Of a DNA stretch of 64,000 bases, positions 1-50,452 are shown piece after piece. The position numbers and the translations under genes are program-made. The DNA is from an uncultured virus (IMG/VR IMGVR_UViG_3300008627_000683). Lineage: Duplodnaviria; Heunggongvirae; Uroviricota; Caudoviricetes. The notes under the pieces were generated by a model. That model searched no databases and was not told the DNA's origin. It saw only the letters and a list, made by a program, of their open reading frames with translations. The first letter of the stretch is position 1; each line of letters opens with the position of its first letter. The DNA lies in the IMG/VR virus record IMGVR_UViG_3300008627_000683, positions 1-64,000 of that record; one strand, given 5' to 3'.

Positions 1-108
1 CTGAATCGCAGCATAGTGTTGAGTAGCATCGACCCATGTCTGTCTCATGCTACCCGCAATGTTACGATAGATGATATGGTATCGCTTGTTAGTGGCTTTC
101 AATTTCAT
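1..108 (-). CDS. hypothetical protein, partial (runs off window)
   Basis: ATG at 108 overlaps the stop of the upstream ORF (TAATG); frame MKLKATNKRYHIIYRN... stays open to the window edge. Confidence 0.55.
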   Translation of the reverse strand, partial: MKLKATNKRYHIIYRNIAGSMRQTWVDATQHYAAIQ

Positions 109-416
109 TATACGGCTCCCTGGACAACACGGTCCCAGTAGGTGTCATGTAAAACATTCTCACGGAGTCCACGCTCGAGCATCTCGTCCTCGTCCATGTC
201 CAACTCATATCGGACTACCTCATAACGGGGCTCTTCCCCACCGTTTAAGTCACGGTCGAAGCGGGCCATCCGTTCAGCGTGGGTAGCGCCGGCATCGCAG
301 TCAATAATACGAAAGTATGACTGGCTACTGTGGATGTCTTTAAAATCCACAAGGTAGAAGTAGTAACCTTTGGGGTGGTCCTCTGTGGACTGGTTGAACG
401 TGTTGAGAGTTTTCAT
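108..416 (-). CDS. hypothetical early phage protein
   Basis: 102 aa ORF directly downstream of a sigma70-like promoter, purine-rich leader. Confidence 0.7.
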   Translation of the reverse strand: MKTLNTFNQSTEDHPKGYYFYLVDFKDIHSSQSYFRIIDCDAGATHAERMARFDRDLNGGEEPRYEVVRYELDMDEDEMLERGLRENVLHDTYWDRVVQGAV

Positions 417-447
417 CTGTTTCCCTGTTTCTTTAACCTATATATAC

Positions 448-1077: not shown

Positions 1078-1416
1078 TTATAGGCGTTTATATAACCACT
1101 GTGAAATAGGAATATACGGATAGTCGTCCCAATCTGAGTACGGTGCGTCCTTTAGTTTCTCGTCTTTAGTTTCTTTTTTATCGTGTGTTTCTTTGTCTTT
1201 TTGTTGAGGAATATGTTGAGAATTACTAATCATTTCCCATTCCTCTTCTGTGTAAGGCATATGTGCTACTTCTTTTTTCTCTTGTGCCTCTGTACTTAAA
1301 TCACGAGTAAACCCACACTTTTTACAAACATAAATGCGATGGTCTATGATGTAACTACTATTTCCCTCACATTGCGAACATTGTATAAGTGTAGATTTTT
1401 TTTCGTTTTTAGCCAT
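1078..1416 (-). CDS. zinc-ribbon hypothetical protein
   Basis: CSQC...CKKC pairs. Confidence 0.6.
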   Translation of the reverse strand: MAKNEKKSTLIQCSQCEGNSSYIIDHRIYVCKKCGFTRDLSTEAQEKKEVAHMPYTEEEWEMISNSQHIPQQKDKETHDKKETKDEKLKDAPYSDWDDYPYIPISQWLYKRL

Positions 1417-1846
1417 TGTTTAAGACATGATGGTCAGGTAACTCATCTTGTGAGTCGCTCCACTTTCCAACATGTTCCGTTTTAAACTCATGCTCTCTGT
1501 CTAAATATTTCCATTCAAGTTTTACTAAACCGAATTCTTGCAATTTCTCAAAAACTTGAATAGGTTTAAATGGCCCGCAAGTATAAACATCTAATTGAAG
1601 CAATGCTGGGTTTGGTTCGTCCCAAATATGCATTGCAATATGGCTTGTTTCAATGATTGAAACAACTGTGATGCCTGCGTTTCCTTCTACTTTCACATAC
1701 TCACAATGTGGACCTGAAAGTAATTTCATATCGATAGTTTTAATTAAATCTATCATCCATTGTTTTGTTTTTTCTACATCGTTCTCATCAGGAGGATTTG
1801 ATACTTCCGCTCTAATGATTAAATGTTTATGAATTGGCAATGCCAT
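1409..1846 (-). CDS. speD: S-adenosylmethionine decarboxylase-family pyruvoyl proenzyme
   Basis: HLII, G-IT-V-IIETSHIAMH-W (self-cleavage Ser), LDVYTCG motifs; 145 aa. Confidence 0.85.
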   Translation of the reverse strand: MALPIHKHLIIRAEVSNPPDENDVEKTKQWMIDLIKTIDMKLLSGPHCEYVKVEGNAGITVVSIIETSHIAMHIWDEPNPALLQLDVYTCGPFKPIQVFEKLQEFGLVKLEWKYLDREHEFKTEHVGKWSDSQDELPDHHVLNNG

Positions 1847-5022: not shown

Positions 5023-5619
5023 TTAGAATGAGACGTTTACATTAACGCCTGCTACAGACTCACTAGTTTCCCAATCACTGTCTAATGGCATTTCCCAGTA
5101 AGGTCTAATAGCAAAAGTTGGGGTCATAGCAATACTCCAGCCTACGCCTATAGTGGATCCTAGGAATGCGTCGGCCTCTTCCCAATCCCACCATAATCTT
5201 CCATATGCATCAATATCATATAAAGCAATGCGGGCTAAAACATCTGTATCCAATGCACTTTCATCAATGTTCCAATTTACTCTTGGAACAATGTTTAAAA
5301 TACTTAATTGCATACCTAAACCAGCACCAACTACATAATCTTTATCATCCGCATATTCGGCCCATGAACTCGCACTTAACGTGCCATTACCAATTCCGGC
5401 CGTAACTGAAAAACCAATATCAGTGTCACTATCAGAATAAGCAGAAAGCCTGTCATTACCGATTCTAAATTCATCCTTATCTGAATAGTTAGCACCTGAT
5501 TGGTCATAACTAACAAACCAGTCTGTTGCGCTAATACGAACGCTACTTTTTGATTCGGCTGCATTTGCTGTACTAAATGCAAAAAACGTTGCCATAATGG
5601 CGTACATCATATTTCTCAT
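5023..5619 (-). CDS. putative outer-membrane beta-barrel protein
   Basis: signal peptide (ANA|AE), amphipathic strands with aromatic residues, C-terminal VNVNVSF. Confidence 0.6.
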   Translation of the reverse strand: MRNMMYAIMATFFAFSTANAAESKSSVRISATDWFVSYDQSGANYSDKDEFRIGNDRLSAYSDSDTDIGFSVTAGIGNGTLSASSWAEYADDKDYVVGAGLGMQLSILNIVPRVNWNIDESALDTDVLARIALYDIDAYGRLWWDWEEADAFLGSTIGVGWSIAMTPTFAIRPYWEMPLDSDWETSESVAGVNVNVSF

Positions 5620-5710: not shown

Positions 5711-7780
5711 TTAACCAGTGCGTTTTGTGATCATTTCAGTGATATTAGCAGGGCACGGTGCGTAGTGACTAAACTCCATACTAAACTGACCACGGCCGCT
5801 CGTCATACCACGCAAGTCGCCAATATAGCCAAACATTTCACCAATTGGTGCTTCTGCCCAAATGCGTACCTTTTGTCCACTAACTTCTTGATTGCTAATC
5901 ATGCCGCGGCGTCTGTTAATGTCGCCAATAACGTCACCAACTTTATCCTCTGGAGCAATTACGTCAAGTTTCATGACAGGCTCTAGTAATTGTGGTCCTG
6001 CTTTAGGCATGGTTTGTCTAAAGCCACCTCGAGCCGCTAATTCAAACGCAATAGCACTTGAGTCAACTGCGTGTGAAGAACCGTCTGTTAATGTCACTTT
6101 AAAGTCTAACAACGGATAACCTGCTACAATGCCGTTATTAGCAGACTCTCTAAAACCTTTTTCAACAGCAGGCCAAAACTCTCTTGGCACATTACCACCG
6201 ACAACTTTTGATTCAAACTCAAAGCCGCCGCCTGATGGCAATGGCTCTATAGTATATTCAATATCACCAAACTGGCCAGAACCACCTGATTGCTTTTTAT
6301 GAACAAATTTGTCTTCCACTGTTTGTGTAATAGTTTCTCTGTATGCTACTTGTGGTTTACCAATACTTACTTCAATGCCATGGGTTCTTTTAAGAATGTC
6401 GCACTTAATGTCTAAGTGTAGTTCGCCCATACCCTTAAGAATAGTTTGCCCACTTTCTTGATCTGTTTCAACATGGAAGGACGGATCTTCAGCGACCATT
6501 TTACCAATAGCAGTTCCTAACTTATCCATGTCACCTTGTGTCTTTGGTTCAACAGCAATACTAATAACCGGGGCAGGGAATACCATTGGCTCTAGTACGG
6601 CGGGTTTATTTTTATCACACAGTGTATGACCTGTTTGTACAGTTTTCATACCAAGCAATGCAATAATATCGCCTGCTTGTGCAGAGTCCTTTTCTTCTCT
6701 ATTGTCGGCATGCATTTCTACAATACGGCCAACACGTTCGGACTTGCCTGTGCTACTGTTATAAATTGTATCACCTTTGTTAAGTTTGCCAGAGTAAATG
6801 CGTGTAAATGTCAATGCACCATACTTGTCGTCCATAATCTTAAACGCAAGTGCTCTTAGTGGTCTGTCATCATCAACAATAGCATGTTCACCTGTTTCAT
6901 TGCCTTCTAAGTCTACTTCTGGCTGTGGATCAACCTCAGTAGGATTAGGCAAATAATCAACCACGGCACTCAATACATTTTGTACGCCTTTATTTTTAAA
7001 TGAACTACCACAGAATGTTGGGAAGAAATCACAATTAATTGTACCCTTGCGAATACACTTTTTAAGATCTTCTTCGCTAATGCTGTCAGGATCCTCCATC
7101 CACTGCATCATTACATCGTCGTCTTGCTCTACAACTTGCTCTACCATTAGATCATAATATTCTTTGGCCTTGTCTGCCAAGTCTGCAGGAATGTCGCTAA
7201 TAGTGTAAGAAGTAGGATCTGCTGAATTTGACCAGGCCCATGCTTTTTGCGTAAGAATGTCTACAATGCCTACAAAATCATCTTCAGCACCAATTGGAAT
7301 AGCCATAATAACTGGTACTGCGTTTAAGCGATCTTTAATTTGCTCTACTACACGATAGAAATCTGCACCAACTCTATCCATTTTGTTAACGTAAATAACA
7401 CGGGCAACTTCACTGTCATTAGCATAACGCCAGTTTGTTTCGGATTGTGGTTCTACGCCTCCTACCGCGCAAAAAACACCAACGCCACCGTCTAATACTT
7501 TCAATGAGCGGTATACTTCAATTGTAAAGTCAACGTGTCCTGGTGTGTCAATAATGTTAAACTGGTGGTCATCCCAAAAGCATGTTGTAGCGGCTGACTG
7601 AATAGTAATACCGCGTTCCTGCTCTTGCTCCATAAAATCTGTAGTAGCGGCGCCGTCATGTACTTCGCCTATCTTATGGATTTTACCTGTTAGTTTTAAA
7701 ATGCGCTCTGTTGTTGTAGTTTTACCTGCATCAACGTGAGCGAAAATTCCTATGTTTCTATACTTTTGTAGATCTGACAT
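5711..7780 (-). CDS. fusA: translation elongation factor G
   Basis: 689 aa; [42 protein letters not shown]; domain V LLEP...GDINRRRG. Confidence 0.97.
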
Positions 7781-7807
7781 TCTTATTGCTCCAGCAAAAA
7801 TTTCTTA

Positions 7808-7854
7808 TATTTATAAGCAATAAGTATTGTACACTATTATTATGGTAATGTCAA
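7808..7854 (-). promoter_or_regulatory. tandem early (sigma70) and late promoters of fusA
   Basis: TTGACA-17-TACAAT (7826-7854) plus TATAAATA (7808-7815). Confidence 0.65.
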
Positions 7855-7858
7855 ATAA

Positions 7859-9490
7859 TTAGAAACCCCACCAATCACGTACTCCGGGATTAAATGACCC
7901 GCTGGTTGTTCCTGTTATTTTCTCAACTTGCCCATCGCTGTTAGGCACGGGAGTAGAACTGAAATATTTATACTTTATCCATTCTTTACATTTATGACCT
8001 CCAACAAAAATTTCTTGTTCATTATAAGCATCTAATTCTACTTTATATCCCCAGATATAAGCAATATAGTTTAGCACGTCTACAGTAGATTCGTTTGCTA
8101 ATTCTCTACCGCTTTTACCTCTGTATAAATGTAACAATAATGTTCTTTTATCATCATGATCAAAGTCTCTTACTTGTATATCTGGAATGCGATAGTTATA
8201 GTCATATTGTCTTGCTAATTCTTTGCGTATGCTCTTGTAACCAGCGTTGTTATGGATTGCTTTTACTTGATAATGTGGATCTTGCTTGCGGTCGCCAAGT
8301 TGGAACAATCTAAAATCACGTATAACTTTTGGAGATAAAAACTGTAGTATAAAACTCTCGTCCCTATAATTAGCAACGATGTCTAATGTAATCTCTTTCC
8401 AATTACCGCCAGCAACATCAGGAAACCATTCTTTATCTTCTTTTGTTGGCTCATCGCACATACGTTTAATGTCTTGAAAAATAGCAAAACCTAATGCATA
8501 TGGATTTATGCCACCATAATATGGTTTATCAAATGTAAGTTGGTTTAAAACGTTTGTGTGTAGTTTTAAAAACTCTAGCATACTTGCGTCACAAATCAAA
8601 CCTTTTTCATGTAAACGATTCATTGTATAATAATGCACAAAGCAAGCATATCCTTCGTTCATCACTTTTGTTTGTCCTTGCGGATAAAAATATTGTGCTA
8701 TCTTACGCACAATACGACATAATTCGCGTTGCCAATCTGTTAAATTAGGCGCGTTTTTTTCAAGGAAATATATAATGTTTTCTTCTGGTTTATCCAAATA
8801 AACATATTTTCTGTCTGTTTTCTTCTTTTCTTCCTTTTTACGTTTAATTACTGTTGTGTCCCATAACTCATTAACATGTTTGCGTAAGTATTCTGCCCTT
8901 TCACCCGCTTTCTCTGCCTCTGCATACGAATTAAGTTTTACTGGACGCTTATATTTGTTAATACCGTAATTACGAATAGAGTGTAATGCATCTAAAAATA
9001 GTTCTACTTCGTCTAATCCATATTTTTCTTCACACTTCTTAACAAAGTTTTTAGCAAATACAAGATAATCAATAATTGCTTCTGCGTTTGTCCATGTTTT
9101 AAACAAGTAGTTATTTTTAAAGAAATGGTTGTGGCCAAACGCGGCGTGAGCAATAACTAATGCTTGCGTGGTCATTGTATTCTCTTCCATGAGATAGTTT
9201 ATGCATGGATTACTATTAATAACGAGTTCGTATGCTAAACTAGTTCTACCTTTTCTGTATTGATTTTCATAATGTGACCATGCCTTACCATTGCTCCAAT
9301 GGTTATATGATAAGGGCATACCAATACTTGCATATGCATCTAACATTTGCTCAAACGTTACAACTTCAAGTTGGTTCGTGTAAGTATCGCAACCAAGTTC
9401 ATTAACTGCAATATCTTCGCAAGCATCGTAGATGTTACTTACAAGTTCAAAACTCCAATCATCTTGTTGTGTGAATAATAGTTTAGTCAT
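7859..9490 (-). CDS. spoVR: SpoVR/YcgB family protein
   Basis: GMP..Y.HWS.GK, LAYELVINSNP, AHAAFGHNHFFKNN, QTKVMNEG, NPYALGF motifs; follows yeaH. Confidence 0.93.
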   Translation of the reverse strand: MTKLLFTQQDDWSFELVSNIYDACEDIAVNELGCDTYTNQLEVVTFEQMLDAYASIGMPLSYNHWSNGKAWSHYENQYRKGRTSLAYELVINSNPCINYLMEENTMTTQALVIAHAAFGHNHFFKNNYLFKTWTNAEAIIDYLVFAKNFVKKCEEKYGLDEVELFLDALHSIRNYGINKYKRPVKLNSYAEAEKAGERAEYLRKHVNELWDTTVIKRKKEEKKKTDRKYVYLDKPEENIIYFLEKNAPNLTDWQRELCRIVRKIAQYFYPQGQTKVMNEGYACFVHYYTMNRLHEKGLICDASMLEFLKLHTNVLNQLTFDKPYYGGINPYALGFAIFQDIKRMCDEPTKEDKEWFPDVAGGNWKEITLDIVANYRDESFILQFLSPKVIRDFRLFQLGDRKQDPHYQVKAIHNNAGYKSIRKELARQYDYNYRIPDIQVRDFDHDDKRTLLLHLYRGKSGRELANESTVDVLNYIAYIWGYKVELDAYNEQEIFVGGHKCKEWIKYKYFSSTPVPNSDGQVEKITGTTSGSFNPGVRDWWGF

Positions 9491-10829
9491 CACTTTTATC
9501 CTTTGGTGTAAAAAACCTTCTAAAAACTGGATATATATCTTTGCTTTGATGAACTCTACCTAATTGTATATTCGACCATTCTTGTGATAACATATAATAT
9601 CTCTTTTCCATACCAGCGCCTGCTACATATTTCAAATCAGCATGTGTCTGACCTGCATTAGGAACAATGCATAAGAATGTAAAATATTGGCAAATAGGTA
9701 AAAGATCGTTGCGTAAAACTTCTGCTACTTTATCATTGTCTGTTGTAAAATTATCACCATCACTTGCCTGGCTAATATAAATGTTCCAGTGTTCTAAATC
9801 ATATCGCTTCTTAATAATTTCATGTGTTAATTCTAATGCTGAACTTACTACTGTGCCGCCACTTTCTTTGCTATTAAAGAATTCATCTTCTGTACATTCC
9901 TTAGCAACAGTATGGTGGCGTATAAACACAATGTCTACCAAGTCATACTTCATATTTAAAAACATATGTAGTAAAATAAAAAAGCGTTTTGCTAAATTCT
10001 TTTCACGTTCTTGCATTGATATTGATACATCTAAAATACAAAACATTACAGCCGCATTTTTAGGCTTTGGTACTTTAGAGAAGTTGTTAAACTTTAGATC
10101 AATTGGATCAATAAACGAGATAGCATTGTATCTTGCTCGTATGCGTTTTATCTCTTCCTCAATCTCTTGCAAACGTAGCCATTCTTGTGTTCTATGATCT
10201 TTGCCTGGTGGCAATGTAGCAAAAAACTCAAGTATTTTATCACGCTCTTCTAGTAGTTCGCGTAATTTTCTTCCCTTAGGCTTTTTAAGAGCCAAACGTC
10301 TGCCAATACTGCGTATCATGCTCTGTTCTAAATTTAGATTGTTTGGTGAGCCTTCATTTACATAACCTGCTCTTTCAACACTAAACTCTTCAATACTTTT
10401 CTTTTGTTTCTCTATTAAATCAGGAAGTTCTAAGTCTTCAAATAATATATCTAAAAATTCATCTTTGTTTATAGAGAATACAAAATCGTCTTCGCCATAT
10501 GCATCATCTGAACCTTCAGATCCGCCGCCGCCTCCTTGGCCACCCTGGGGTGGTTTGCGTATTTTATCGCCAGGAACATATTCTTTATTGCCGGGTAAGA
10601 CATAATCTTTTTCACCTGATTTAGGATCGTATTGGAATTGTGGTTCTTTAATACTTTTAGCAGGAACTTTGACGCGGCTGCCAGACTTTAGATCCTTGAT
10701 AGATCTGTTTTTAATAGTTTCGTCTAAGCTTTCCTTAATATACTTCTTTGACCGCTCAATGAAGCGTTGTCTATTGGAAAGATTCTTTCCCTTAGGATTT
10801 GAACGCCTGTCAATAATATGCTTGGCCAT
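9483..10829 (-). CDS. yeaH: YeaH/YhbH (DUF444) vWA-domain protein
   Basis: IIDRR.NPKGK..NRQRF, Gly-rich linker, MIDAS-like LDVSISM, ESGGTVVSSAL, QASDGDN. Confidence 0.93.
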   Translation of the reverse strand: MAKHIIDRRSNPKGKNLSNRQRFIERSKKYIKESLDETIKNRSIKDLKSGSRVKVPAKSIKEPQFQYDPKSGEKDYVLPGNKEYVPGDKIRKPPQGGQGGGGGSEGSDDAYGEDDFVFSINKDEFLDILFEDLELPDLIEKQKKSIEEFSVERAGYVNEGSPNNLNLEQSMIRSIGRRLALKKPKGRKLRELLEERDKILEFFATLPPGKDHRTQEWLRLQEIEEEIKRIRARYNAISFIDPIDLKFNNFSKVPKPKNAAVMFCILDVSISMQEREKNLAKRFFILLHMFLNMKYDLVDIVFIRHHTVAKECTEDEFFNSKESGGTVVSSALELTHEIIKKRYDLEHWNIYISQASDGDNFTTDNDKVAEVLRNDLLPICQYFTFLCIVPNAGQTHADLKYVAGAGMEKRYYMLSQEWSNIQLGRVHQSKDIYPVFRRFFTPKDKSDD

Positions 10830-10838
10830 GGTAAACCC

Positions 10839-12779
10839 TTAACTTGACTTCTGGGTTCTCATGTACCATTCAACAAGTCTACGAACTTGCCTATCAGTAT
10901 AACCTTTCTCTTCCATACGAGCAACAAAGTCATTGTGCTTTTGTTGGTCATCTTTGTTTTGCTTATTACCAAAGGAAATAATAGGTAGTAGTTCTTCTGT
11001 GGACGCAAACATTTTCTTTTCAATAATCTCGCGTAGTTTTTCATAACTCGACCACTTTGGATTCTTACCTTTGTTTTTTGCTTTTGCTCTCAATACAAAG
11101 TTGACTACTTCGCTACGGAAGTCTTTTGGATTAGCGATACCGGCTGGTTTCTCAATCTTCTCTAACTCCTCGTTTAGTACTTCGCGGCTAAACAAGTTGC
11201 CTGTGTCAGGATCTTTAAAGTCAATCTCTTGAATCCAGTGATCAGCGTATTCAATATAACGATCAAACAAGTTTTGTCCATAATCACTATAACTTTCTAA
11301 ATATGCTTTTTGTATTTCATTACCAATAAAGTCAGCATACTTTGGAGCCAACCATTCTTTAATAAAGTTTGTGAGCGTTTTTTCATTTTCCTCACCAAAC
11401 TGATCGCGTTTAATTGCTTGCTCTAGTACAAACATCAAATGTACTGGATCAGCCGCAATCTCGTTTGTGTCAAAGTTAAACACTTGTGACAGTATCTTAA
11501 ACGCAAAACGTGTTGATGAGCCAGACATGCCTTCGTCTACTCCCGCAACGTCTTTATATTCTTGTAGTGACTTTGCTTGTGGATCAGTGTCTTTTAAATT
11601 CTTGCCGTTATACACTTGCATTTTGGAAAACAAATTACTGTTTTCATGCTCACGCAGTCTACTTAAAATACTATACTGCGATAACATTTCAAGTGTTTGC
11701 GGGGCACATGGATGCTGTGCTAGTCCACTTGAGTCTAGCATCTTTTCGTAAATACTAATCTCTTCATCAATACGTAAGCAGTAAGGAACCTTAACAACAT
11801 ACACACGATCTAGGAACGCTTCGTTGTTTTTGTTGTTCTTAAATGACTGCCATTCTGATTCGTTACTATGTGCTAAAATTGTTCCACTAAACGGAATAGC
11901 ACTAATACCTTCTGTACCCATATAGTTGCCTTCCTGCGTAGCAGTTAGCAATGGGTGTAATACTTTGATTGGTGCTTTAAACATTTCAACAAATTCCATA
12001 AGGCCTTGGTTGCCTTTACATAATGCACCACTAAATGCGTATGAGTCTGGATCGTGTTGTGAGAAGTACTCAAGTTGACGAATATCTGTCTTACCAACCA
12101 ATGAACTAATGTCTTGGTTGTTTTCGTCACCTGGCTCTGTTTTTACTACAGCAATCTGTTTTAGTTTACTTGGCTGTAATTTTACTACTGTAAATTTAGT
12201 AATGTCACCATCAAATTCATCCAAGCGTTTAATTGCCCATGGGCTTAGTAAGCCAGTTAGGTAACGCTTTGATATTTTATATTCTTTCTCAATTTGCTCA
12301 CCATATTTCTCAGGAGAGAACAGAGACAACGGACTTTCAAAAACAGGGCTAATTACATCGCCTGCTTTTAGTACATAAATTGGATGTATTTCCATTAATT
12401 CTTTTAAACGTTCAGCAAGACTCGACTTGCCGCCGCCCACTGGGCCCAACAAATATAATATTTGTTTACGTTCTTCTAAGCCTTGTGCGGCATGTTTAAA
12501 AAATCCAACAATTCTTTCTACGGTATCTTCTAGTCCGTAAAAGTCTTTAAATGCTGGATATACTCGTAATGTTCTGTTCAGGAAGATGCGTGACAACCGT
12601 GGATCTTCCGAAGTATCTATATGCTCTGGGTCCCCAATGGCAGCTAACATTCGTTCTGCTGATGTAGCATATGCGAGTGGGTCCTTCTTACATAGATTTA
12701 GATACTCTTCAAGTGTGAACTCTTGCTCTTTATATGATTGGTAATCTGCAGAGAACTCCTTTAATAGTTTGCTTGCCAT
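10839..12779 (-). CDS. prkA: PrkA/YeaG AAA+ serine protein kinase
   Basis: Walker A GPVGGGKS, TEPGDENNQDISSLVGK, EFVEMFKAP, HSNESEW, IANPKDFR. Confidence 0.96.
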   Translation of the reverse strand: MASKLLKEFSADYQSYKEQEFTLEEYLNLCKKDPLAYATSAERMLAAIGDPEHIDTSEDPRLSRIFLNRTLRVYPAFKDFYGLEDTVERIVGFFKHAAQGLEERKQILYLLGPVGGGKSSLAERLKELMEIHPIYVLKAGDVISPVFESPLSLFSPEKYGEQIEKEYKISKRYLTGLLSPWAIKRLDEFDGDITKFTVVKLQPSKLKQIAVVKTEPGDENNQDISSLVGKTDIRQLEYFSQHDPDSYAFSGALCKGNQGLMEFVEMFKAPIKVLHPLLTATQEGNYMGTEGISAIPFSGTILAHSNESEWQSFKNNKNNEAFLDRVYVVKVPYCLRIDEEISIYEKMLDSSGLAQHPCAPQTLEMLSQYSILSRLREHENSNLFSKMQVYNGKNLKDTDPQAKSLQEYKDVAGVDEGMSGSSTRFAFKILSQVFNFDTNEIAADPVHLMFVLEQAIKRDQFGEENEKTLTNFIKEWLAPKYADFIGNEIQKAYLESYSDYGQNLFDRYIEYADHWIQEIDFKDPDTGNLFSREVLNEELEKIEKPAGIANPKDFRSEVVNFVLRAKAKNKGKNPKWSSYEKLREIIEKKMFASTEELLPIISFGNKQNKDDQQKHNDFVARMEEKGYTDRQVRRLVEWYMRTQKSS

Positions 12780-14344: not shown

Positions 14345-15664
14345 TTAGTAATAGATTTTATATATTTCTCTTACGTCATATTCAGGGTGATGTTTTTGTA
14401 GTATTTCTAGAGCGTTTCGAATTCTACTATAATCATTTTCTTTATTGAATGTAAAGTTTTTCAAAGATTCAATTAGATTTTTTATTTGTTCAATATCATC
14501 GCTGTAAAAACAACTACTTTTCTTCAGTGTGTGTTCAATTTTCTCTCTGCAATTTTGGACGACATCATAGGGAACTAATCGCAAGTTAAAATCACTGCTA
14601 TCTACCATTTGAACAAGCCCTGCTATACGCACTCTCTTATGCATAGGTATTTTTTTATTTTTTAGATCCATAAAAGAAAGTAGTTCATCTAAATATGGCA
14701 ACGTTAACGCTGTTATAACTATATTAAACGAAACTGGAGTATGATCGCATTCTAGGCCAATCTGTAAATATTGATCAATATTTTTTTCTAGTTTTGTCCA
14801 TTTTACAGGATATCTCTGTAATTCAATCGCCGGGCCTACACTATCAATACTTAATACTAACATAACAAGTTTAAAATGCTTGATGATTTCAATGAATCTA
14901 GGATGAATCATTGTCGTATTTGTAGTTATTACTAATTCTATATTTTTACTGTGATCGCATTCTATCAAATATTCTAAAAATTTTAAATTTTCTAATATTA
15001 TAGTGGGTTCGCCGCCACTTAAATACAATCGAGTAATATTGCTTATTCTTTTTTCTCCAATAATATTTTTTAATCCTATTTTTGAAGGCCAATTATATTT
15101 TTTAAGTTTTTTAGAAGTTCTACTCGCACCCGCGTATTCATTGTCAGGCCTGCCTGTTTCAGAAAGATCATATTTAAATTGGCTTAAATCATCAACGCCT
15201 AGTCTATTAAAAAATCTTCCATAGGTAATACTATAATCACTATTACAAATTTTACATGCCAAGTTACATGTATTTCCAGACTGTATTTGATAAAAATAAG
15301 GATAGCTATCGTCTAATATAAAATTATTTTTAACACTTTTATCAACAACGTCTTGTATGTGAGGATAGCTATCCTCCGCACCAAGCGCCGCCTGGCGAAC
15401 ACTCCACATGCCACGTTCTTCAGAGTCCCAGCAATTCTGACATTCAGGTGCCTTAACTCCATTATATAGATTTTCTCGAAGTTTAAGCATCCTTTTGGAA
15501 TTCCACGCATCATTTAAAGTATGTGTGTTTATGTTATAGTGATTTCCGTTCTCATCCAAGTGGGCATACTCTTTATCGTTACTCGAGGCACAACAAAATT
15601 TTATATCACCATTGGTTTCTATTTCTTGATGGGCCCAGGGATAAGTGCAAAGTGGTTTATTCAT
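14345..15664 (-). CDS. radical SAM protein with N-terminal twitch/SPASM-like domain
   Basis: LC.YPW, CC, C..CW; CNLACKIC; GGEP; SIDS.G...QRYP..W. Confidence 0.85.
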   Translation of the reverse strand: MNKPLCTYPWAHQEIETNGDIKFCCASSNDKEYAHLDENGNHYNINTHTLNDAWNSKRMLKLRENLYNGVKAPECQNCWDSEERGMWSVRQAALGAEDSYPHIQDVVDKSVKNNFILDDSYPYFYQIQSGNTCNLACKICNSDYSITYGRFFNRLGVDDLSQFKYDLSETGRPDNEYAGASRTSKKLKKYNWPSKIGLKNIIGEKRISNITRLYLSGGEPTIILENLKFLEYLIECDHSKNIELVITTNTTMIHPRFIEIIKHFKLVMLVLSIDSVGPAIELQRYPVKWTKLEKNIDQYLQIGLECDHTPVSFNIVITALTLPYLDELLSFMDLKNKKIPMHKRVRIAGLVQMVDSSDFNLRLVPYDVVQNCREKIEHTLKKSSCFYSDDIEQIKNLIESLKNFTFNKENDYSRIRNALEILQKHHPEYDVREIYKIYY

Positions 15665-16301
15665 TATCTTGTATTTTAGATTGGACAAATCTATCTAACC
15701 CTTCGTATGTGTCGTACAGCACATAACGCCACGAATCAAACTCTGCCGGATGTGGATATTCTTCTGGCTTTATAAAAATAAAAGTAATATTATAAAAATG
15801 TTTAAACAATAACTCAAACTGTTTTATCCATTTTTCTGGATTACGTGGTCCTTGCTTTTCGTTTCTATAATGTTCTGTATTTAGATATATGTTATTAGCA
15901 TACTTTTGGTTTTTTCCCTTGCCATAAAAGTCGTAACCCAACAACATAATAACATCTGCTTCTTCTTTTATAGCAGTATAAACAGCATACAATCCACTGC
16001 TCCAATTAATAGGTTGTTGGTATGTTTCTAAACCAAAATAAGGAAGATCGGGCAACACTCTTACTTTATCTTTTGCTAAGTAGTGCGCCCAATCCTTACG
16101 GGTGTAAAAGTTAGAGCGTAAGTGAACGCCATTACTGACTGCTTCTCTTGCCCTAAACTTATTACAGCATATCAAATTGTCAACGTGATTGTCTCGCCAA
16201 ATCGCGCCGCATCCGTATAACGGTCCTATGTCGCGCAACTTTTGTAAATCATAACTTTTGCGTGTCTCACCATTGCCAATACAATATGCTATTTTTTTCA
16301 T
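15657..16301 (-). CDS. DUF115/MptE-like (Maf/sialyltransferase-like fold) protein
   Basis: IGNGETR, YGCGAIWRD, WSSG..A, LLGYDF, NNIY. Confidence 0.55.
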   Translation of the reverse strand: MKKIAYCIGNGETRKSYDLQKLRDIGPLYGCGAIWRDNHVDNLICCNKFRAREAVSNGVHLRSNFYTRKDWAHYLAKDKVRVLPDLPYFGLETYQQPINWSSGLYAVYTAIKEEADVIMLLGYDFYGKGKNQKYANNIYLNTEHYRNEKQGPRNPEKWIKQFELLFKHFYNITFIFIKPEEYPHPAEFDSWRYVLYDTYEGLDRFVQSKIQDNE

Positions 16302-24559: not shown

Positions 24560-25351
24560 CTATGCAAACTGTTCTCCATATTCATCAATTGATTCAAAAT
24601 CATGCTCATTTGCTAACATCGCATTTCCATATTCAATAACCATTAACTTACATGCTTTGCGTTTGTTTTCATTACGCAATGCATGGAATTGACCCAATGG
24701 AATATAAAAATGTTGATGAGCGTCTAAATCACGTGATTTAATATTTCCTAATGTTTCTTCCCATGCATAGTCTACTATACATTGACCACCCATAACAAAC
24801 CAAAATTCACTTTTTCTCATATGGCGCCCAAAAGTCATTTGATGTTTGGGTTCCAAACTTACTTCTTTTACTCTACAATTACTATCTTGATATACAACAT
24901 TATAATAACCATAATCCGTATAACACATACCAAATTTATAATTACGAATCAATTGACTAGATGAAGTCTTCTTTTCAAAACCACCAACGCCAAAAATAAA
25001 CTCAACGTCTGCTATTGCTTGTTCAGGAACATTGGTGGTGTCTCTGTCACCCCCGTTGGCAAAAACAATTGTATCATTTGGATAATGTTCCTTTATTTTT
25101 TCTAATGCATGGATGGCAGTATTGTCTTTGTCATTAAATCCAACTACATCGTCTACTACTGAAAGACTATTAAGAATAAGTGCCCTCTCTTCAAAAAGCA
25201 TAAATGATCTACCTTTTTTACGAGAAAGCCACTTGTCACTGTTTAAAGCCACGATAAGTTTGTCGCCAAGTTTTTTGGCCTCATTAAATAATGCAATGTG
25301 CCCTTTATGAATCGGATCAAATCCGCCTGAGACTACTACTATCGTCGCCAT
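24560..25351 (-). CDS. cytidylyltransferase (RfaE-like) fused to cupin (type II mannose-6-P isomerase-like)
   Basis: SGGFDPIHKGH, LNSD.WL.RKKG, FANGGDR, KTSSS; cupin H...SEFWFV...H.L.N. Confidence 0.85.
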   Translation of the reverse strand: MATIVVVSGGFDPIHKGHIALFNEAKKLGDKLIVALNSDKWLSRKKGRSFMLFEERALILNSLSVVDDVVGFNDKDNTAIHALEKIKEHYPNDTIVFANGGDRDTTNVPEQAIADVEFIFGVGGFEKKTSSSQLIRNYKFGMCYTDYGYYNVVYQDSNCRVKEVSLEPKHQMTFGRHMRKSEFWFVMGGQCIVDYAWEETLGNIKSRDLDAHQHFYIPLGQFHALRNENKRKACKLMVIEYGNAMLANEHDFESIDEYGEQFA

Positions 25352-29577: not shown

Positions 29578-29589
29578 ACACATATTTAG

Positions 29590-29847
29590 TGGGGGCGACT
29601 TTGTTAAGAAGGTGTCGCCCCCGAAACCCCCTACGCGACCGCTAATTAGGCGGCTAATGCGTAATCGTAATAATCGTCATTTGCAATTATATAGTTTGCT
29701 GTTTTTTAATATGGAACTGCTCCCATATGTCGTCCATTTATCCTCTTCACCCTGTCGAAACTGTGTCACCCCCGTAAAAAATTTGGTGGAGGTGCCGGGC
29801 ACTGCCCCCGGGTCCAGAATGCGTACTTTCAACTTCATACGACAATC
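29590..29847 (-). ncRNA. ssrA: circularly permuted (two-piece) tmRNA
   Basis: acceptor piece ends GGACCCGGGGGCAGTGCCCGGCACCTCCACCA (CCA at 29786-29784), 10-nt spacer, coding piece starts GGGGGTG (29773) giving a G3:U70 Ala stem; tag ORF 29684-29646 ANDDYYDYALAA*; terminal GC hairpin 29591-29622; outer ends approximate. Confidence 0.93.
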
Positions 29848-29852
29848 AAAAT

Positions 29853-29860
29853 TATTTATA
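29853..29860 (-). promoter_or_regulatory. late promoter of tmRNA
   Basis: exact TATAAATA immediately upstream of the acceptor piece. Confidence 0.65.
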
Positions 29861-29897
29861 TAGGTGTAGAAGAATAAAGGAATACCTGAGCATTCCT

Positions 29898-32792: not shown

Positions 32793-33860
32793 ATGCACGA
32801 CAAAAAGTTCTTTTGTATAGAGCCTTTCGTAAGTCTTTCTATAGTTAAAGAAGATCATATTTTTCCTTGTTGTCTTAATGAAGGGCAAAAAAGCACTCAA
32901 AAAGATGACCTATGGAACGATCCTTATCTTGAAAATATACGAAAACAAATTCTAAACAACGAAGTTCCTGAAGAATGTCGCGCCTGTGTTGAACAAGAAA
33001 AGTTTGGTCGATATAGCAGACGATTACATTCTAATGATGTTTGGTTAGAACAACACGGCAATTTTGAAGATGCTCTTGAAAATGATGCTCCGTATAAGTT
33101 AGATTTTTGGACTGGAAACTTGTGTAATTTGGCTTGTAGTACTTGTACATATACAAATAGTTCATCATGGTTTACACTTCTTAAAAAAGCAGATAAAGCA
33201 GGAAAAACTGATTTACGTTATAAAGGAAACTATGTAAGTAATTTAGATTACTCTTATGAATTTAAAAAAGAAGATATTCCGAATATTGACTTTAAAAATA
33301 TGGAAAATATACACTTCAACGGCGGTGAACCCTTGCTAACAGATTCACACTTTAAAATTTTAAATTTAATTCCGCCAGAACAAAGAAAGGATGTTTATGT
33401 CATTTATAACACAAACGGTACCGTCAGAATAGATTTAGAAGATGAAAAATGGAGTATTTTCAAAGAATACAAAAGTGTCGATATGTGTTTTAGTATAGAT
33501 GGCATTGAAGAAACATTTAATTATGTTAGATGGCCTGCTAAATGGGAAGAAGTACAAAGCAACATTGATCTATGGGCTGAATATTGTTATGGAAAATATG
33601 ATGACTGCCACTTTGAAATGAGTGTAAACATGGTAAAAACTCCGCACAATTATACAACGTTTGATAATGCCGTTAAATATGTCACTGATCGTTGGTTTAC
33701 CAAACTTATTGCGATTCGAAACGCAAGCATTGATGAATATGTGTTTACTACTAATGATCATTCTTTTATGGATTGGTCAGACGCACAATTTGAAGAATAC
33801 ACAAAGACAGAAGAATTTTTCTTGCAAACAAAAAATTTAGAAACACTACGAAATCTTTGA
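32793..33860 (+). CDS. radical SAM protein (twitch/SPASM N-terminus)
   Basis: FCIEPF, PCC, C..C; CNLACSTC; GGEP; YNTNGT; SIDG...YVRWP..W. Confidence 0.85.
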   Translation: MHDKKFFCIEPFVSLSIVKEDHIFPCCLNEGQKSTQKDDLWNDPYLENIRKQILNNEVPEECRACVEQEKFGRYSRRLHSNDVWLEQHGNFEDALENDAPYKLDFWTGNLCNLACSTCTYTNSSSWFTLLKKADKAGKTDLRYKGNYVSNLDYSYEFKKEDIPNIDFKNMENIHFNGGEPLLTDSHFKILNLIPPEQRKDVYVIYNTNGTVRIDLEDEKWSIFKEYKSVDMCFSIDGIEETFNYVRWPAKWEEVQSNIDLWAEYCYGKYDDCHFEMSVNMVKTPHNYTTFDNAVKYVTDRWFTKLIAIRNASIDEYVFTTNDHSFMDWSDAQFEEYTKTEEFFLQTKNLETLRNL

Positions 33861-33964: not shown

Positions 33965-34399
33965 ATGACAGAGTATAGAATCACATCTGGGAATCTAATC
34001 CCAACACTTAACCGACACATGGTAGGCTTCGATCGTCTCTTTGGCGATATGGACAGATTGTTTACAAGGGGCCAAGCACCATCTTACCCACCTTACAACA
34101 TCGAAAAACTTAGCGATACAGAATATGTTATCACTATCGCTGTCGCTGGTTTTGATCAAGGTGATCTTTCAGTAACCGTTGACAACGGCGTTCTTAATGT
34201 CTCAGGACACAAAGAAGATTCAGATAAGCAAACATGGTTACACAAGGGCATCGCTACACGCGACTTCCAACGCTCTTGGAACCTTGCTGAATTTGTTAAG
34301 GTTGTCTCAGCAGAGTGTAAAAACGGTATGCTTGAAGTTCGTTTGGTTCAAGAAGTTCCTGAAACCGCTAAACCCAAGGAAATTGAGATTAAATTTTAA
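33965..34399 (+). CDS. ibpA: small heat-shock protein Hsp20/IbpA
   Basis: VGFDRLF, SYPPYNIEK, AVAGF, LHKGIA.R.F, NGML.V.L...VPE..KP..I.I. Confidence 0.93.
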   Translation: MTEYRITSGNLIPTLNRHMVGFDRLFGDMDRLFTRGQAPSYPPYNIEKLSDTEYVITIAVAGFDQGDLSVTVDNGVLNVSGHKEDSDKQTWLHKGIATRDFQRSWNLAEFVKVVSAECKNGMLEVRLVQEVPETAKPKEIEIKF

Positions 34400-45084: not shown

Positions 45085-46998
45085 TTAGATTCCACATCCA
45101 CCCGCCACACATGCTAGTTCTTGTGAACTGGTGGTCATATCTTGTTCTTCATATTCACTTAGCAATCCCCAATCAACATCTTTGGGCATTTTGGCTAATA
45201 ACTCTTTATACTCTTCTTCTGAGCAATCTTGATATGGTGCTTGTCTGTAAGTATGATCGTTAAATGGCAAGAATGAAACTCCTGACATCATATCAAAGTT
45301 GTTATATACCCATGCACCTACTTCCATCCATTCTGTTTCTTTTACACTAATGGTTACTGATGGTTTGTGTTCGCACCAGTGTTCTTGATATACTTTCCAT
45401 AACTCTAGTTGCTCAATAGCGGTCATGTCTTTACGGTATACACCGTTTTTAGGACCTTTAACTGGGAATGAGAAAACATAAGTATGGTTTGGTTTTGTCA
45501 CATCATCTTCACAAGGAAACCCTGCTTCCTTCATCATCTTAGCAAGTGGATCCTTCTTATCAGCACGAATAGTTCTAATATAATAAGGATTGTGTCTTGC
45601 GTGAATGCCACTTGCACTATCAACTAGTTGACTAACCGTGCCACTTGGTTTTACACAAGTAATAGCGGCTGATTGAGCAATACCTAACTTTGAAGCAATT
45701 TCTTTGTTTGTTGCAACTGCTACTTGTTTAAGTTCTGATAATAATTCCTCAATACCTTTCTTCTTGCCATTCGTAAAAGCATTATCCATAATGCCCGTCA
45801 ATGAAACGCCTAATAGTCTTTCTTCTTGGCAGTTATTTTCCCAACGCTTGTTAAGGTATTTAAAGTTAGTAAGTGTTGATTGGAATGTGCCTAAAATTGT
45901 AGCATTGATAACTTTGTTCTTTAAAGATTCGAGTGTGTCTTCTGGACGAACAACAACTTCAGATAAATTACAAAATTCTTCAGATCTTAAAATAATTTCA
46001 CTGCAAGGATTGGTGCCAAAGTTATGCTCTGGATCTCTACGTCCACTTGAAGCGGCAACCTTTTGTGCGGCTTCTCTATTAAAGATACCACGCTCGCCTG
46101 ATTTGGAATCATATAATGCTTTCCACTCTTCCATAAAAATACCTACATCTGGTCTTTCTGTATAACAAGCGGAATTGTTTGCTAACGCACGTTGAGTATT
46201 GTTTTCCCACCATTGACCTGCTTTAGCATGTCTCATTCTGTCATCACTTAGGTTGGATAATGAGATAAGTGCTGAGCGGCGAACGCCACCAACTACAACA
46301 ATTTCAGCAATCTTACATGTAATGTCGTGACACTCAAGTGATGTTAGTTTACGGCCCGCGGCGTTTTTAAATATATCTATACAAAATCTAAACAAATCTT
46401 CCAATGGCTCTGGGCCAGAAGCACGACCGCCAAATGTTTTTAATGGTGCGCCTGCTGGGCGAACTCTTGACAAATCCCACTGAGGAATTTGTCCACCATA
46501 TAGCAAATGGATAAGTTCTTTAAGTGCCTTTGCCCATCCAAGTTTAGAGTCACTTACCACGATTGTAGTTTCAGTATCATGAAAATCATCTGCAACTCTA
46601 GGCATCTCGTTAACCATTTGTCTTTCAACACTAAACCCAACGCCTGTTCCATTCATTAAAATATATAAAATCTCATCAAATGCTCTTGGTGTTTCGATAG
46701 CAACAAATGAACAATTATATCCTGCGATGTTTTCACGTGATAGTGCTTCACCTGCTGTCATAAGACAACGCATTGAAGGCATTATGTCTAAATTTAGAAC
46801 AGCATCTTTTAATTGTGTTTTAAGTCCAGTGGGTAATTTGTATTCACATTGCTGTTTTAAATGTTCTTCGAAAAAGTCGAAGTATCTGCTAACTGTTTCT
46901 TCCCATGTTTCTCTGCGTTTAACATCATATCTGTAACGAGAGTATCTTGATAAGTGAATATACTGCTGATATAGAGTGGGTAATTGATGGGCCGCCAT
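45085..46998 (-). CDS. nrdJ: class II (B12-dependent) ribonucleotide reductase
   Basis: GYNCSF, GTGVGFSV, GGVRRSALIS, GTNPCSEI, FCNLSE, CVKPSGTVS, C-terminal ACVAGGC; no nrdB adjacent. Confidence 0.93.
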   Translation of the reverse strand: MAAHQLPTLYQQYIHLSRYSRYRYDVKRRETWEETVSRYFDFFEEHLKQQCEYKLPTGLKTQLKDAVLNLDIMPSMRCLMTAGEALSRENIAGYNCSFVAIETPRAFDEILYILMNGTGVGFSVERQMVNEMPRVADDFHDTETTIVVSDSKLGWAKALKELIHLLYGGQIPQWDLSRVRPAGAPLKTFGGRASGPEPLEDLFRFCIDIFKNAAGRKLTSLECHDITCKIAEIVVVGGVRRSALISLSNLSDDRMRHAKAGQWWENNTQRALANNSACYTERPDVGIFMEEWKALYDSKSGERGIFNREAAQKVAASSGRRDPEHNFGTNPCSEIILRSEEFCNLSEVVVRPEDTLESLKNKVINATILGTFQSTLTNFKYLNKRWENNCQEERLLGVSLTGIMDNAFTNGKKKGIEELLSELKQVAVATNKEIASKLGIAQSAAITCVKPSGTVSQLVDSASGIHARHNPYYIRTIRADKKDPLAKMMKEAGFPCEDDVTKPNHTYVFSFPVKGPKNGVYRKDMTAIEQLELWKVYQEHWCEHKPSVTISVKETEWMEVGAWVYNNFDMMSGVSFLPFNDHTYRQAPYQDCSEEEYKELLAKMPKDVDWGLLSEYEEQDMTTSSQELACVAGGCGI

Positions 46999-49012: not shown

Positions 49013-50452
49013 TTAGGCATTATAATCACAGTTGCTACAAGCAGAGGCACACATATTTAAATTACCACAATCACCGTAGTCGGCATTTAGAGTCTGTAGA
49101 AACCTATTCTCTGTTGTATTTGGAGTCCATGTATTTGCTATTGTGTCAAAAAATCCTGTTTTGAATACTTCTTCTATACCACCATATTTTAGAGCATTGT
49201 TAGCATCGTTTTTAAAACCAAAAGTTAATAACAATTCTCTCAGATCGTAAGTGTACTCATTTGCAATTCTTGTGTGATTATGACCCATCATACAACACGG
49301 ATAAACAAAGCCGTCTGCTGTAATAAAAACTTTAGATTCTGTTACAGCCATGCAATTTATTTTTCTATTACTGTGCTTTTTACTCGATGGTAAACCTCTC
49401 AGAACTTTATTGACATCAACGTTGTCATATTCTTCAATATTGGTCACTTTCCATAGCGAATCTTTAACCCAAATAAATTTTTCTGCTTCTTCTTCCCATG
49501 ATTTATTTTGACTAACATATTTTTCTTGTGCGATTTTTAAAAATGATGTATATTCTTTTATATTAATTTGATCAATTTGGTTATCATCTTCACTAACAAA
49601 CATATGTGCCTTATATTTTTTTGCAATATTGTATACAGGACCCTTTCCGTGTTTTTGGATAGCCTTTTTAAAAAGATCAGACAATGTTTCATTTACTTCA
49701 TAAAGCATTGCATCTAAATATGGATATGATATTTTTATATCTGTTTGTTCTTCATTATTTTTGATGTTTTCTGTTTGATCAGTTAAGTATCTGTCATAAT
49801 CTTCTAAGCCTTCCGCACCTTGAAGTTGACCAACATATTCTCCTTTACTGGTATATACTGGAGTATCTTCTGGCCTATCCGTATTGATAATTTCTATTTT
49901 TGCAAAATTATATTCTTTGGCAAGTTCTTTAACATCTTCAAATTGATGTTGATTATGTTTAAAAAGTATAAACTGTAAAATAGCATTTCCACCTGCGTCT
50001 ATAAATGCTTTTGCGTTTTCTAAAACTTTTTTAAGATTTGTGTTTTGTCTATAATAAGAATGTACTTCTTGCGTTGTGCCATCTACTGCAAACCATATTT
50101 TCATATTTTTATACTTTGCAAAATTTGCCCAATAATCAGTACTATGCATTCCGCCGTTGGTATTAATTTCAATTATAATATCATTATTACAGGAATAAAG
50201 ATAATCTACCATTTGAGGTAGATTAGGATTTACTTGGGCGTCTCCAACATTTCCACAAAATATAACACGTTCTAAGTTGGATACCAGTTTTGATGTTAAT
50301 AAAAATTTAAACTCATCTAGCGACATGTGTTTTTGATAGGTGCCTGCTAGTTCTCCATATCCATAATATGCTCTACTACAGGCAGGGCATGCCGCGTTAC
50401 ACTTTTCGGTTATTTCAATTTGTACACTAGTAATATCTTTATATCTATACAT
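49013..50452 (-). CDS. radical SAM protein with C-terminal SPASM
   Basis: CNAACPAC, CGNVGD, NTNGG, FAVDG; DG.VYPCC; C...C. Confidence 0.85.
   Translation of the reverse strand: MYRYKDITSVQIEITEKCNAACPACSRAYYGYGELAGTYQKHMSLDEFKFLLTSKLVSNLERVIFCGNVGDAQVNPNLPQMVDYLYSCNNDIIIEINTNGGMHSTDYWANFAKYKNMKIWFAVDGTTQEVHSYYRQNTNLKKVLENAKAFIDAGGNAILQFILFKHNQHQFEDVKELAKEYNFAKIEIINTDRPEDTPVYTSKGEYVGQLQGAEGLEDYDRYLTDQTENIKNNEEQTDIKISYPYLDAMLYEVNETLSDLFKKAIQKHGKGPVYNIAKKYKAHMFVSEDDNQIDQINIKEYTSFLKIAQEKYVSQNKSWEEEAEKFIWVKDSLWKVTNIEEYDNVDVNKVLRGLPSSKKHSNRKINCMAVTESKVFITADGFVYPCCMMGHNHTRIANEYTYDLRELLLTFGFKNDANNALKYGGIEEVFKTGFFDTIANTWTPNTTENRFLQTLNADYGDCGNLNMCASACSNCDYNA

Follow-up and report, generated by a model that had tools for sequence, protein, structure and literature searches.

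The EF-G gene

The window analysed here is a stretch of 64,000 nucleotides (nt), positions 1 to 64,000 of the IMG/VR virus record IMGVR_UViG_3300008627_000683, and our subject is its gene for elongation factor G (EF-G), which lies on the minus strand behind a candidate promoter block and genes of the PrkA, YeaH and SpoVR families. An earlier note, made from the letters alone, had described an EF-G of 689 amino acids (aa) carrying all G motifs and domains, outside any rpsL, rpsG or tuf context. Two features make up the gene itself:

5711..7780, minus strand: EF-G coding sequence, 689 aa, ATG start, of the non-str-operon EFG I type (by open reading frame (ORF), Pfam, TIGR00484, motifs and tree)
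7789..7792, minus strand: GGAG, Shine-Dalgarno-like, 8 nt 5' of the EF-G ATG (by inspection)

In the predicted protein Pfam recognised GTP_EFTU (residues 6-279), GTP_EFTU_D2/EF-G_D2, EFG_III (401-475), EFG_IV (476-594) and EFG_C (597-681), all far over the cut-off and together giving the complete architecture of a G domain with G' and domains II, III, IV and V. The NCBIfam equivalog model for EF-G, TIGR00484, scored 952.7 bits against a cut-off of 659.4, and since the alignment joins residues 3-687 to positions 6-688 of the 691 in the model, the window EF-G is full length. The motifs G1 (AHVDAGKT), G2 (RGITI), G3 (DTPGH), G4 (NKMD) and G5 (GSSFKNKG) are all present, as are both loop motifs of domain IV, one of which is SSHAVDSS. 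G1 to G5 are identical in the consensus of 20 non-redundant rows of the phage clade described below, and the domain IV loops show conservative changes, the consensus of the first loop in the clade being HKKQTGGAGQF, from which the window version differs. The Shine-Dalgarno-like stretch is likewise kept, as a GGAGCA block upstream of EF-G, in four related loci (L002, L008, L005 and L009). Pfam, TIGR00484 and the motif check therefore agree with the earlier description of the protein, and the solved structures nearest to it are those of ordinary EF-Gs (best 6not and 4fn5). The genomic context was also as described: a SpoVR-family gene lies upstream and an ORF without family assignment downstream, and the str-operon order rpsL-rpsG-fusA-tuf is absent from the locus. 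In our reading the window EF-G is a genuine phage gene, predicted to be functional, and it encodes all of an EF-G translational GTPase.

Several other readings of the protein were tried and rejected. It scored 473.7 against a cut-off of 890 for EF-G2/EFG II (NF009377), and its G2 motif is the canonical RGITI; it scored 468.7 against 1000 for Bacteroides EF-G2 (NF058620) and 376.3 bits against 775 for the tetracycline ribosomal protection proteins (NF012153). The NCBIfam scores for RF3, LepA and TypA were also under the cut-off.

Residence in a T4-like jumbo phage

The window record (G000) is 77,365 bp long and classed as a virus contig in IMG/VR; in reverse complement it coincides with the final 77 kb of a contig of 201,690 bp (G001), the two being identical at 15,675 of 15,675 overlapping bases. 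In a PHROGs scan of the remaining 124 kb of G001, which covered 90 ORFs of 110 aa or longer, structural and packaging genes were found for a portal, prohead protease, major head protein, tail sheath, tail tube, baseplate wedge and hub, head closure and large terminase, together with replication and recombination genes for a gp32-like single-stranded DNA-binding protein, UvsX, UvsY, a gp46/47-like nuclease and a helicase. The same contig encodes a gp55-like "sigma factor for late transcription" (phrog_12791, 8.9e-79; phrog_234, 1.3e-22). A relative of 322,647 bp, rated 90% complete (G003), shares its terminase type with G001 and has an EF-G that is 81% identical. By its gene content the window phage belongs, as a distant member, to the T4-like jumbo myophages, and its genome exceeds 200 kb. 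EF-G was found in a matching neighbourhood on 13 IMG/VR contigs. A near-identical phage was not found in GenBank, where the best tblastn match reached 52.9% and DNA matches were at most 72% and covered short parts only.

Phylogeny and selection

In a collection of 5.8 billion proteins, those more than 76% identical to the window EF-G were only metagenome proteins, none of them on a contig longer than 255 kb. The nearest named cellular EF-Gs were 70-76% identical and came from Opitutales and Akkermansiaceae (Verrucomicrobiota), from Methylococcales and Pseudomonadales such as Porticoccaceae (Gammaproteobacteria), and further from filamentous Cyanobacteria and single bins of Bacteroidota, Myxococcota and Chloroflexota. 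EF-Gs of the str operon were 46-55% identical to the phage protein, far from the near-identity to a host str-operon copy which the earlier note had named as a finding that would speak against it. At the 80 cellular genome loci of close EF-G relatives, S7 was never found upstream on the same strand; S12, S7 and EF-Tu were absent from the fetched stretch in 72, and the str genes lay on the opposite strand in 8. As a control, five genomes were examined whole, and all five have a second EF-G, 48-55% identical to the phage protein, which by Pfam is preceded by S12/S7 and followed by EF-Tu or S10.

At five loci of the Porticoccaceae/SAR92 type and Marinobacterium (L055, L067, L089, L090 and L091) the non-str EF-G adjoins the str operon on the opposite strand. 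EF-Tu lies on the other side in four of them (not L067), the paralog being placed between the str-type fusA and tuf, and thus both types of EF-G adjoin in L055, L089, L090 and L091.

The subfamily phylogeny that had been proposed as a check was built twice, as a quick tree of 119 rows, from which 43 rows at least 96% identical to a retained one had been dropped, as had the window-identical rows L002-L004 and L006 and the duplicates L098-L102, and as a careful tree of 47 rows (LG+C20+F+G4 with posterior mean site frequencies, 1000 ultrafast bootstraps). The topologies agree. EF-Gs of the viral contigs and the metagenome proteins of more than 76% identity form one clade (support 100/99). Its sister clade takes in every cellular non-str paralog sampled (98/93), and a long branch separates the two together from the copies of the str operon (100/100). 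In the careful tree the phage copies are not nested within any bacterial group. The N-terminus quoted in the earlier note is present in the translation, and the resemblance to secondary EF-Gs outside the str operon that the note saw in it is thus borne out, both by the trees and by the genomic position of the relatives of 70-76% identity. The tree is rooted through a long outgroup branch and A+T-rich genomes are the source of the phage proteins, and the placement as sister to all cellular paralogs could partly be an attraction artefact. EF-Gs of the phage clade are on average 83% identical to one another (minimum 76%), compared with 79% among cellular paralogs of several phyla, and thus EF-G is old in phages. 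The clade is best read as a single acquisition, made long ago at the base of one lineage of marine T4-like jumbo myophages of about 200-320 kb.

Ratios of nonsynonymous to synonymous substitution rates (dN/dS), estimated by the Nei-Gojobori method, were 0.049 for the window and L008 (dS 0.89), 0.117 for L005 and L009 (dS 0.42), and no higher than 0.142 in all phage EF-G pairs with a computable dS. G+C content of the EF-G gene is 0.417 in total and 0.31 at third codon positions (GC3), and that of the window is 0.359. Since dN/dS lies at 0.05-0.14 and GC3 at 0.31, the gene is a selected resident, and neither a contaminant nor a decaying passenger; by these estimates EF-G is held under strong purifying selection in the phage lineage. 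Thirteen positions are fixed differently in the phage and the cellular paralogs, five of them within residues 184-234, and no catalytic motif is touched. Residues 184-234 presumably fall in the G' subdomain, which contacts L7/L12 and is in general less conserved than any other part of EF-G. Substitutions in this segment are compatible with tuning to the host ribosome, though G' is variable anyway.

Candidate promoters

In the T4 programme early genes have sigma70 promoters and late genes have gp55-dependent promoters of the form TATAAATA. It was suggested in the earlier note that EF-G has both an early and a late promoter, built from TTGACA-17-TACAAT and a second motif upstream of the gene. 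Both motifs were located, at 7854..7826 and 7815..7808:

7826..7854, minus strand: TTGACA-17 nt-TACAAT, candidate sigma70-type early promoter, beginning 5 nt past the SpoVR stop (by scan and conservation)
7808..7815, minus strand: TATAAATA, candidate T4-type (gp55-dependent) late promoter, 27 nt 5' of the ATG (by motif and conservation)

Read onward from the SpoVR stop, the order is TTGACA (7854..7849), 17 nt, TACAAT (7831..7826), 10 nt, TATAAATA, 27 nt including GGAG, and the ATG. The early candidate matches at 11 of 12 positions and is the only such site in a 9-kb scan. Its TTGACA is identical, with a -10 of the form TAnAAT and the same 17-nt spacing, in the metagenome locus L146 and in the four distinct viral sequences that have a spacer before EF-G (L002, L008, L005 and L009), although the letters of the spacer and flanks vary. 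At the late position L002, L005, L009 and L146 have TATAAATA, and L008 has AATAAATA. L005 and L007 have a different ORF upstream, yet the promoter block remains with EF-G.

Window-wide, TATAAATA occurs 18 times against 11.9 expected (standard deviation (sd) 3.2), a count reached by 6 of 100 shuffles, and 16 of the 18 copies are on the coding strand. G001 has 32 copies, of which 21 are intergenic, non-coding sequence making up 4.8% of the genome. Among 56 words of the same composition TATAAATA ranked first in the sense-oriented upstream regions of G001, with 20 occurrences against a mean of 5.5 (sd 4.1) and 13 for the next best, and a sense to antisense ratio of 20:4. Eighteen intergenic sites lie within 100 nt of a start, 11 of them at 18-53 nt, some before blocks of structural genes. 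Strict TTGACA-N16-18-TAnnnT sites number 18 in G001, and nine are intergenic; intergenic sites precede the genes for td (thymidylate synthase), gp47-like, gp32-like, exonuclease, Hsp20 and EF-G proteins, a pattern that fits early genes. The gp55-like gene is itself preceded by TTGACT-17-TATAAT, which fits an early-to-late cascade. A tandem of a sigma70-like site and NATAAATA was found at 3 of 20 relaxed intergenic sites, before the gp55-like gene, one other gene and EF-G.

Several observations weigh against the two promoters. The 9-kb scan returned 30 promoter-like sites, compared with 31.7 (sd 5.0) in shuffles, and since this is not above chance a single sigma70-like site proves little alone. 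At four of the 18 intergenic TATAAATA sites near a start, the predicted start codon follows after only 5-6 nt, which is too close for a promoter of that gene; TATAAATA may therefore have several meanings, or these four starts may be miscalled. In L013, L014, L123 and L151 there is no promoter gap, the end of an AlgH-like gene and EF-G being only 1-4 nt apart. A search of RNA data returned 10 runs with 5-15% of the sampled words; the four that were examined, all marine, match only pieces of about 29-89 nt at 95-99% identity, in contigs that then continue unlike the window, and these pieces are therefore conserved EF-G stretches of other organisms.

Conservation and genome-wide enrichment together argue that both motifs are more than chance. 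Sigma70 early and gp55-dependent late promoter classes have been used to annotate marine T4-like myophages (PMC9004378), and here, as in T4, sigma70-like -35 and -10 elements are followed by TATAAATA in a phage that encodes a gp55-like sigma factor, one relative (L008) having AATAAATA in its place. The suggestion of early and late promoters thus stands as plausible and as a well-supported prediction, given conservation, enrichment and the gp55-like factor, but for part of the clade only.

Other translation genes

One further gene related to translation was found in the window:

29588..29882, minus strand: permuted (two-piece) transfer-messenger RNA (tmRNA) (by ARAGORN and Rfam)

Its tag peptide was given by ARAGORN as ANDDYYDYALAA, and Rfam scored it at 121.8 bits for tmRNA_permuted and 83.7 bits for alpha_tmRNA. 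Two-piece tmRNAs have been described in marine T4-like myophages, including those of hosts that are not alphaproteobacteria (PMC9004378), and the match to the alphaproteobacterial model was therefore not used as a pointer to the host. A cluster look-up of 10 proteins of the phage clade yielded no organism names either.

Translation partners were searched for on five related phage contigs, 5-90% complete, so that absence is certain only for the sequence seen. Each of the five has exactly one gene with a GTP_EFTU domain, EF-G itself, and hence no EF-Tu. Genes for the ribosome recycling factor (RRF) and SmpB were not found on any of the five, the 90%-complete one included; tRNA genes were not found in the 201.7 kb of G001, and a hibernation-related gene was not found on the related contigs. 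Given that RRF, SmpB and a second GTP_EFTU gene were not seen, the phage EF-G must use the ribosomes, RRF and EF-Tu of the host.

The PrkA-YeaH-SpoVR neighbourhood

Upstream of EF-G the window has three genes on the same strand:

7859..9493, minus strand: SpoVR-family gene, directly 5' of EF-G (Pfam SpoVR, 2.8e-155)
9483..10829, minus strand: DUF444/YeaH-family gene (Pfam DUF444, 3.1e-152)
10839..12779, minus strand: PrkA/YeaG-family gene (Pfam AAA_PrkA, 1.1e-173, and the PrkA C-terminal domain)

PrkA, DUF444/YeaH and SpoVR genes lie upstream of EF-G, on its strand, in 13 of 13 viral loci (L002-L014), with PrkA 75-100% identical across them. The trio directly adjoins EF-G in nine of these loci. 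One additional ORF stands between SpoVR and EF-G in L005 and L007, and four do so in L013 and L014 (Glu/Leu/Phe/Val-dehydrogenase-like, Rv2179c-like exoribonuclease, AIR-synthase-related or small ORF, and AlgH-like); in L009-L012 an ORF resembling a NUMOD3 homing endonuclease lies between PrkA and YeaH. Within the fetched flanks, PrkA-YeaH-SpoVR was near EF-G in none of the 80 cellular genome loci and in one of 80 metagenome loci, the phage-type L146. The linkage of EF-G to PrkA-YeaH-SpoVR is real and phage-specific.

Genes 3' of EF-G are not conserved across the phage clade, and in the EF-G neighbourhood of G004 and G005, the contigs of L013 and L014, MlaC lies downstream. In the window EF-G is directly followed by an ORF of 198 aa (5023..5619, minus strand) that had no Pfam or PHROG match; it has a hydrophobic, signal-like N-terminus and a C-terminus ending in VNVNVSF, its homologues follow EF-G in several relatives, and we take it to resemble a small outer-membrane beta-barrel protein. 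The GenBank phages with such a PrkA were Ralstonia phage RsoM2USA and three related huge phages of 634-642 kb. In LR745206, LR756502 and LR756504 the PrkA is 60-63% identical and the EF-G 48-49% identical, the latter outside the clade, and the two genes are far apart on the genome.

Other observations on the phage genome

The record ends at window positions 1..420, as do, in different assemblies, the contigs of L002, L003, L004 and L006, at a point 5,710 bases past EF-G. These last approximately 420 bases appear richer in G+C by eye and contain two short minus-strand ORFs; the shared end may mark where the genome stops, or else a repeat or mobile insert at which assemblies break off. G004 and G005 are 45-48 kb long and were rated 5-6% complete by CheckV, implying very large genomes, and may represent a separate group of larger phages with a common PrkA...EF-G arrangement.

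Radical-SAM-like genes are unusually many, with at least 10 PHROG matches and one run of six among seven consecutive scanned ORFs (in the window at 14345..15688, 32793..33860 and 49013..50527; elsewhere at L115:871-9707 and L119:6709-7662); L014 has two such genes just 3' of EF-G. Other host-like genes in the window are those for an S-adenosylmethionine decarboxylase-like protein, Hsp20, ribonucleotide reductase and a heptose-phosphate adenylyltransferase-like protein (jointly 1409..1846, 33965..34399, 45085..46998 and 24560..25351). In the structural region of G001 one open frame of 4,936 codons was observed on the minus strand (G001:C1:36740-51550).

Proposed role

We think it probable, with moderate confidence, that the gene encodes an active EF-G which supplements or replaces the host pool, made early by the host RNA polymerase and late by way of gp55. 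Expression throughout infection and a role in sustaining elongation or recycling had been proposed in the earlier note; the motifs are what points to the former, and the latter would be reasonable and agrees with the published hypothesis for the elongation factors of huge phages (PMC7162821). The phage EF-G would bind host 70S ribosomes, where its intact G domain would hydrolyse GTP and its intact domain IV would drive translocation of tRNA and mRNA. As the phage encodes no RRF, it probably splits ribosomes with the RRF of the host. In this way it would add to, or replace, the host EF-G pool while the cell is being reprogrammed. In the sub-lineage of the window a promoter of the host sigma70 type would give early expression, and TATAAATA, read by the phage gp55-like sigma factor, would give late expression. 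We infer the activity on host ribosomes, the timing of expression and the benefit to the phage from these features of the gene and its setting. The strict linkage to PrkA-YeaH-SpoVR weighs against such a general function, as it suggests a role more specific than support of elongation at large.

It was therefore considered whether EF-G acts with PrkA-YeaH-SpoVR, allowing the phage to translate in nutrient-starved, slow-growing marine hosts. The cellular homologues yeaG-yeaH-ycgB are tied to starvation and stationary phase, and a phage EF-G might set idle ribosomes moving again, or recycle them together with the RRF of the host, the PrkA module meanwhile resetting the starvation physiology of the host. 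The trio has stayed 5' of EF-G in every viral locus despite identity falling to 78%, saturated dS, differing downstream genes and, in some loci, up to four inserted genes; it is all but missing from the cellular and metagenome loci sampled (0/80 and 1/80), and the presence of PrkA and EF-G in LR745206, LR756502 and LR756504 is another, independent co-occurrence, though at distant sites. However, EF-G has its own promoter block and is not simply the last gene of a PrkA operon, synteny among related phages can persist without functional coupling, and the related contigs yielded neither an RRF nor a hibernation-related gene. The function of PrkA, YeaH and SpoVR is itself unsettled, and RsoM2USA has PrkA and SpoVR in a report whose text does not mention an elongation factor (PMC8504454). 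We hold a starvation-specific function to be possible but rather unlikely.

It is doubtful that the gene is a replacement for a host EF-G that has been switched off by a defence, a toxin or the phage itself, the divergent phage protein being insensitive. The phage protein does diverge, in its 46-55% identity to str-operon EF-Gs and in the thirteen positions fixed differently from the cellular paralogs, five of them in residues 184-234, but these substitutions spare all catalytic motifs, and G' generally shows the lowest conservation within EF-G. A putative kinase of the PrkA family is always nearby, and whether PrkA is a kinase is debated. The inactivation could be the work of a phage kinase, for which there is a precedent in the T7 kinase, which phosphorylates EF-G (PMC6375957). 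A defence system or toxin directed at EF-G was not found, no systematic search for one having been made, and the earlier idea that the gene serves to bypass host defences, which belongs here, gained no support.

That the gene is cellular contamination, a chimeric assembly or a decaying passenger is highly improbable and, as far as sequence can show, refuted: viromes can contain cellular DNA (PMC3877843), most GenBank "phage" records with an EF-G of about 50% identity look like host DNA, and one Salmonella "phage" record holds a full str operon, but here the EF-G neighbourhood is common to 13 viral contigs from different assemblies, T4-like core genes stand on the same 201.7-kb contig, the closest cellular proteins reach about 75% identity, GC3 has moved to the phage level and dN/dS is 0.05-0.14.

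Relation to known systems and significance

EF-G in phages of more than 200 kb was already published in 2020, when huge phages were reported to encode EF-G, EF-Tu and EF-Ts and it was proposed that phage elongation factors maintain translation efficiency (Al-Shayeb et al. 2020, Nature 578:425, PMC7162821). As described there, those EF-Gs are like the present one in being full-length, in residing in phages of more than 200 kb next to other translation-related genes (here the tmRNA), and in their proposed role. Unlike those huge phages, the window phage is T4-like and marine, of about 320 kb judging from its 90%-complete relative, without tRNAs in 201.7 kb and without RRF, SmpB and EF-Tu in the sequence seen. 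The huge-phage EF-Gs of LR745206, LR756501-4 and LR756508 are 45-49% identical to that of the window and fall outside the paralog clade, and therefore represent separate acquisitions.

EF-G2/EFG II, including the Bacteroides EF-G2, is an additional EF-G for particular physiological conditions, and from it the phage protein differs in falling under the NF009377 and NF058620 cut-offs and in its canonical G2. Alteration of the G2 motif in EFG II sub-groups, and EFG I genes that lie outside the str operon and were laterally acquired in Gammaproteobacteria and Cyanobacteria, were described by Margus, Remm and Tenson (2011, PLoS One 6:e22789, PMC3150367). By that description the phage EF-G is like the non-str EFG I genes, having canonical G motifs and a place outside the str operon; it is unlike its cellular counterparts in that the phage copies form a clade of their own and stand beside PrkA-YeaH-SpoVR, an arrangement seen at none of the 80 cellular loci. 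For Pseudomonas aeruginosa, Palmer et al. (2013, PLoS One 8:e80252, PMC3832671) found that the non-str EF-G1B was the copy active in translocation, and recycling appeared to be the task of EF-G1A, which belongs to the str operon. This pair, in which two EF-Gs of the EFG I type share the work in one cell, offers a model for how a second EF-G can matter, although EF-G1A and EF-G1B are recent duplicates of 84% identity and the phage EF-G is about 50% identical to the str type.

Literature on an EF-G lineage of T4-like marine phages was not found; the supplementary per-phage tables of PMC7162821 could include relatives. What appears new is a separate, old and monophyletic EF-G lineage in T4-like marine jumbo phages, its assignment to the non-str EFG I branch, the conserved block of two putative promoters and the strict linkage to PrkA-YeaH-SpoVR. 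The discovery is a modest one because EF-G in huge phages was reported in 2020. To our knowledge, phage elongation factors have been listed from metagenomes and none has been tested, and this branch of EF-G is without biochemical data even in bacteria.

As a speculation that we consider unlikely, PrkA-YeaH-SpoVR and EF-G could form a conserved phage cassette for the takeover of starved hosts, and the phage EF-G lineage a vehicle of the second EF-G. If so, the PrkA module would reset the starvation programme of the host, and a phage EF-G made early and late would drive the ribosomes of nutrient-limited marine bacteria at rates chosen by the phage. In depth the phage lineage equals the whole of the cellular non-str paralogs; phages are therefore a possible reservoir or vehicle, and they may have spread the second EF-G across Gammaproteobacteria, Verrucomicrobiota and Cyanobacteria.

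The window phage provides a clean test case, with one intact and strongly selected EF-G, no RRF, EF-Tu or tRNAs seen, and membership of a phage type with an understood transcription logic, and the constant linkage to PrkA-YeaH-SpoVR gives a handle both on the role of a second EF-G and on that of the PrkA module. If the phage EF-G translocates on host ribosomes, it would mean that a virus can usefully supply a single rate-limiting core elongation factor.

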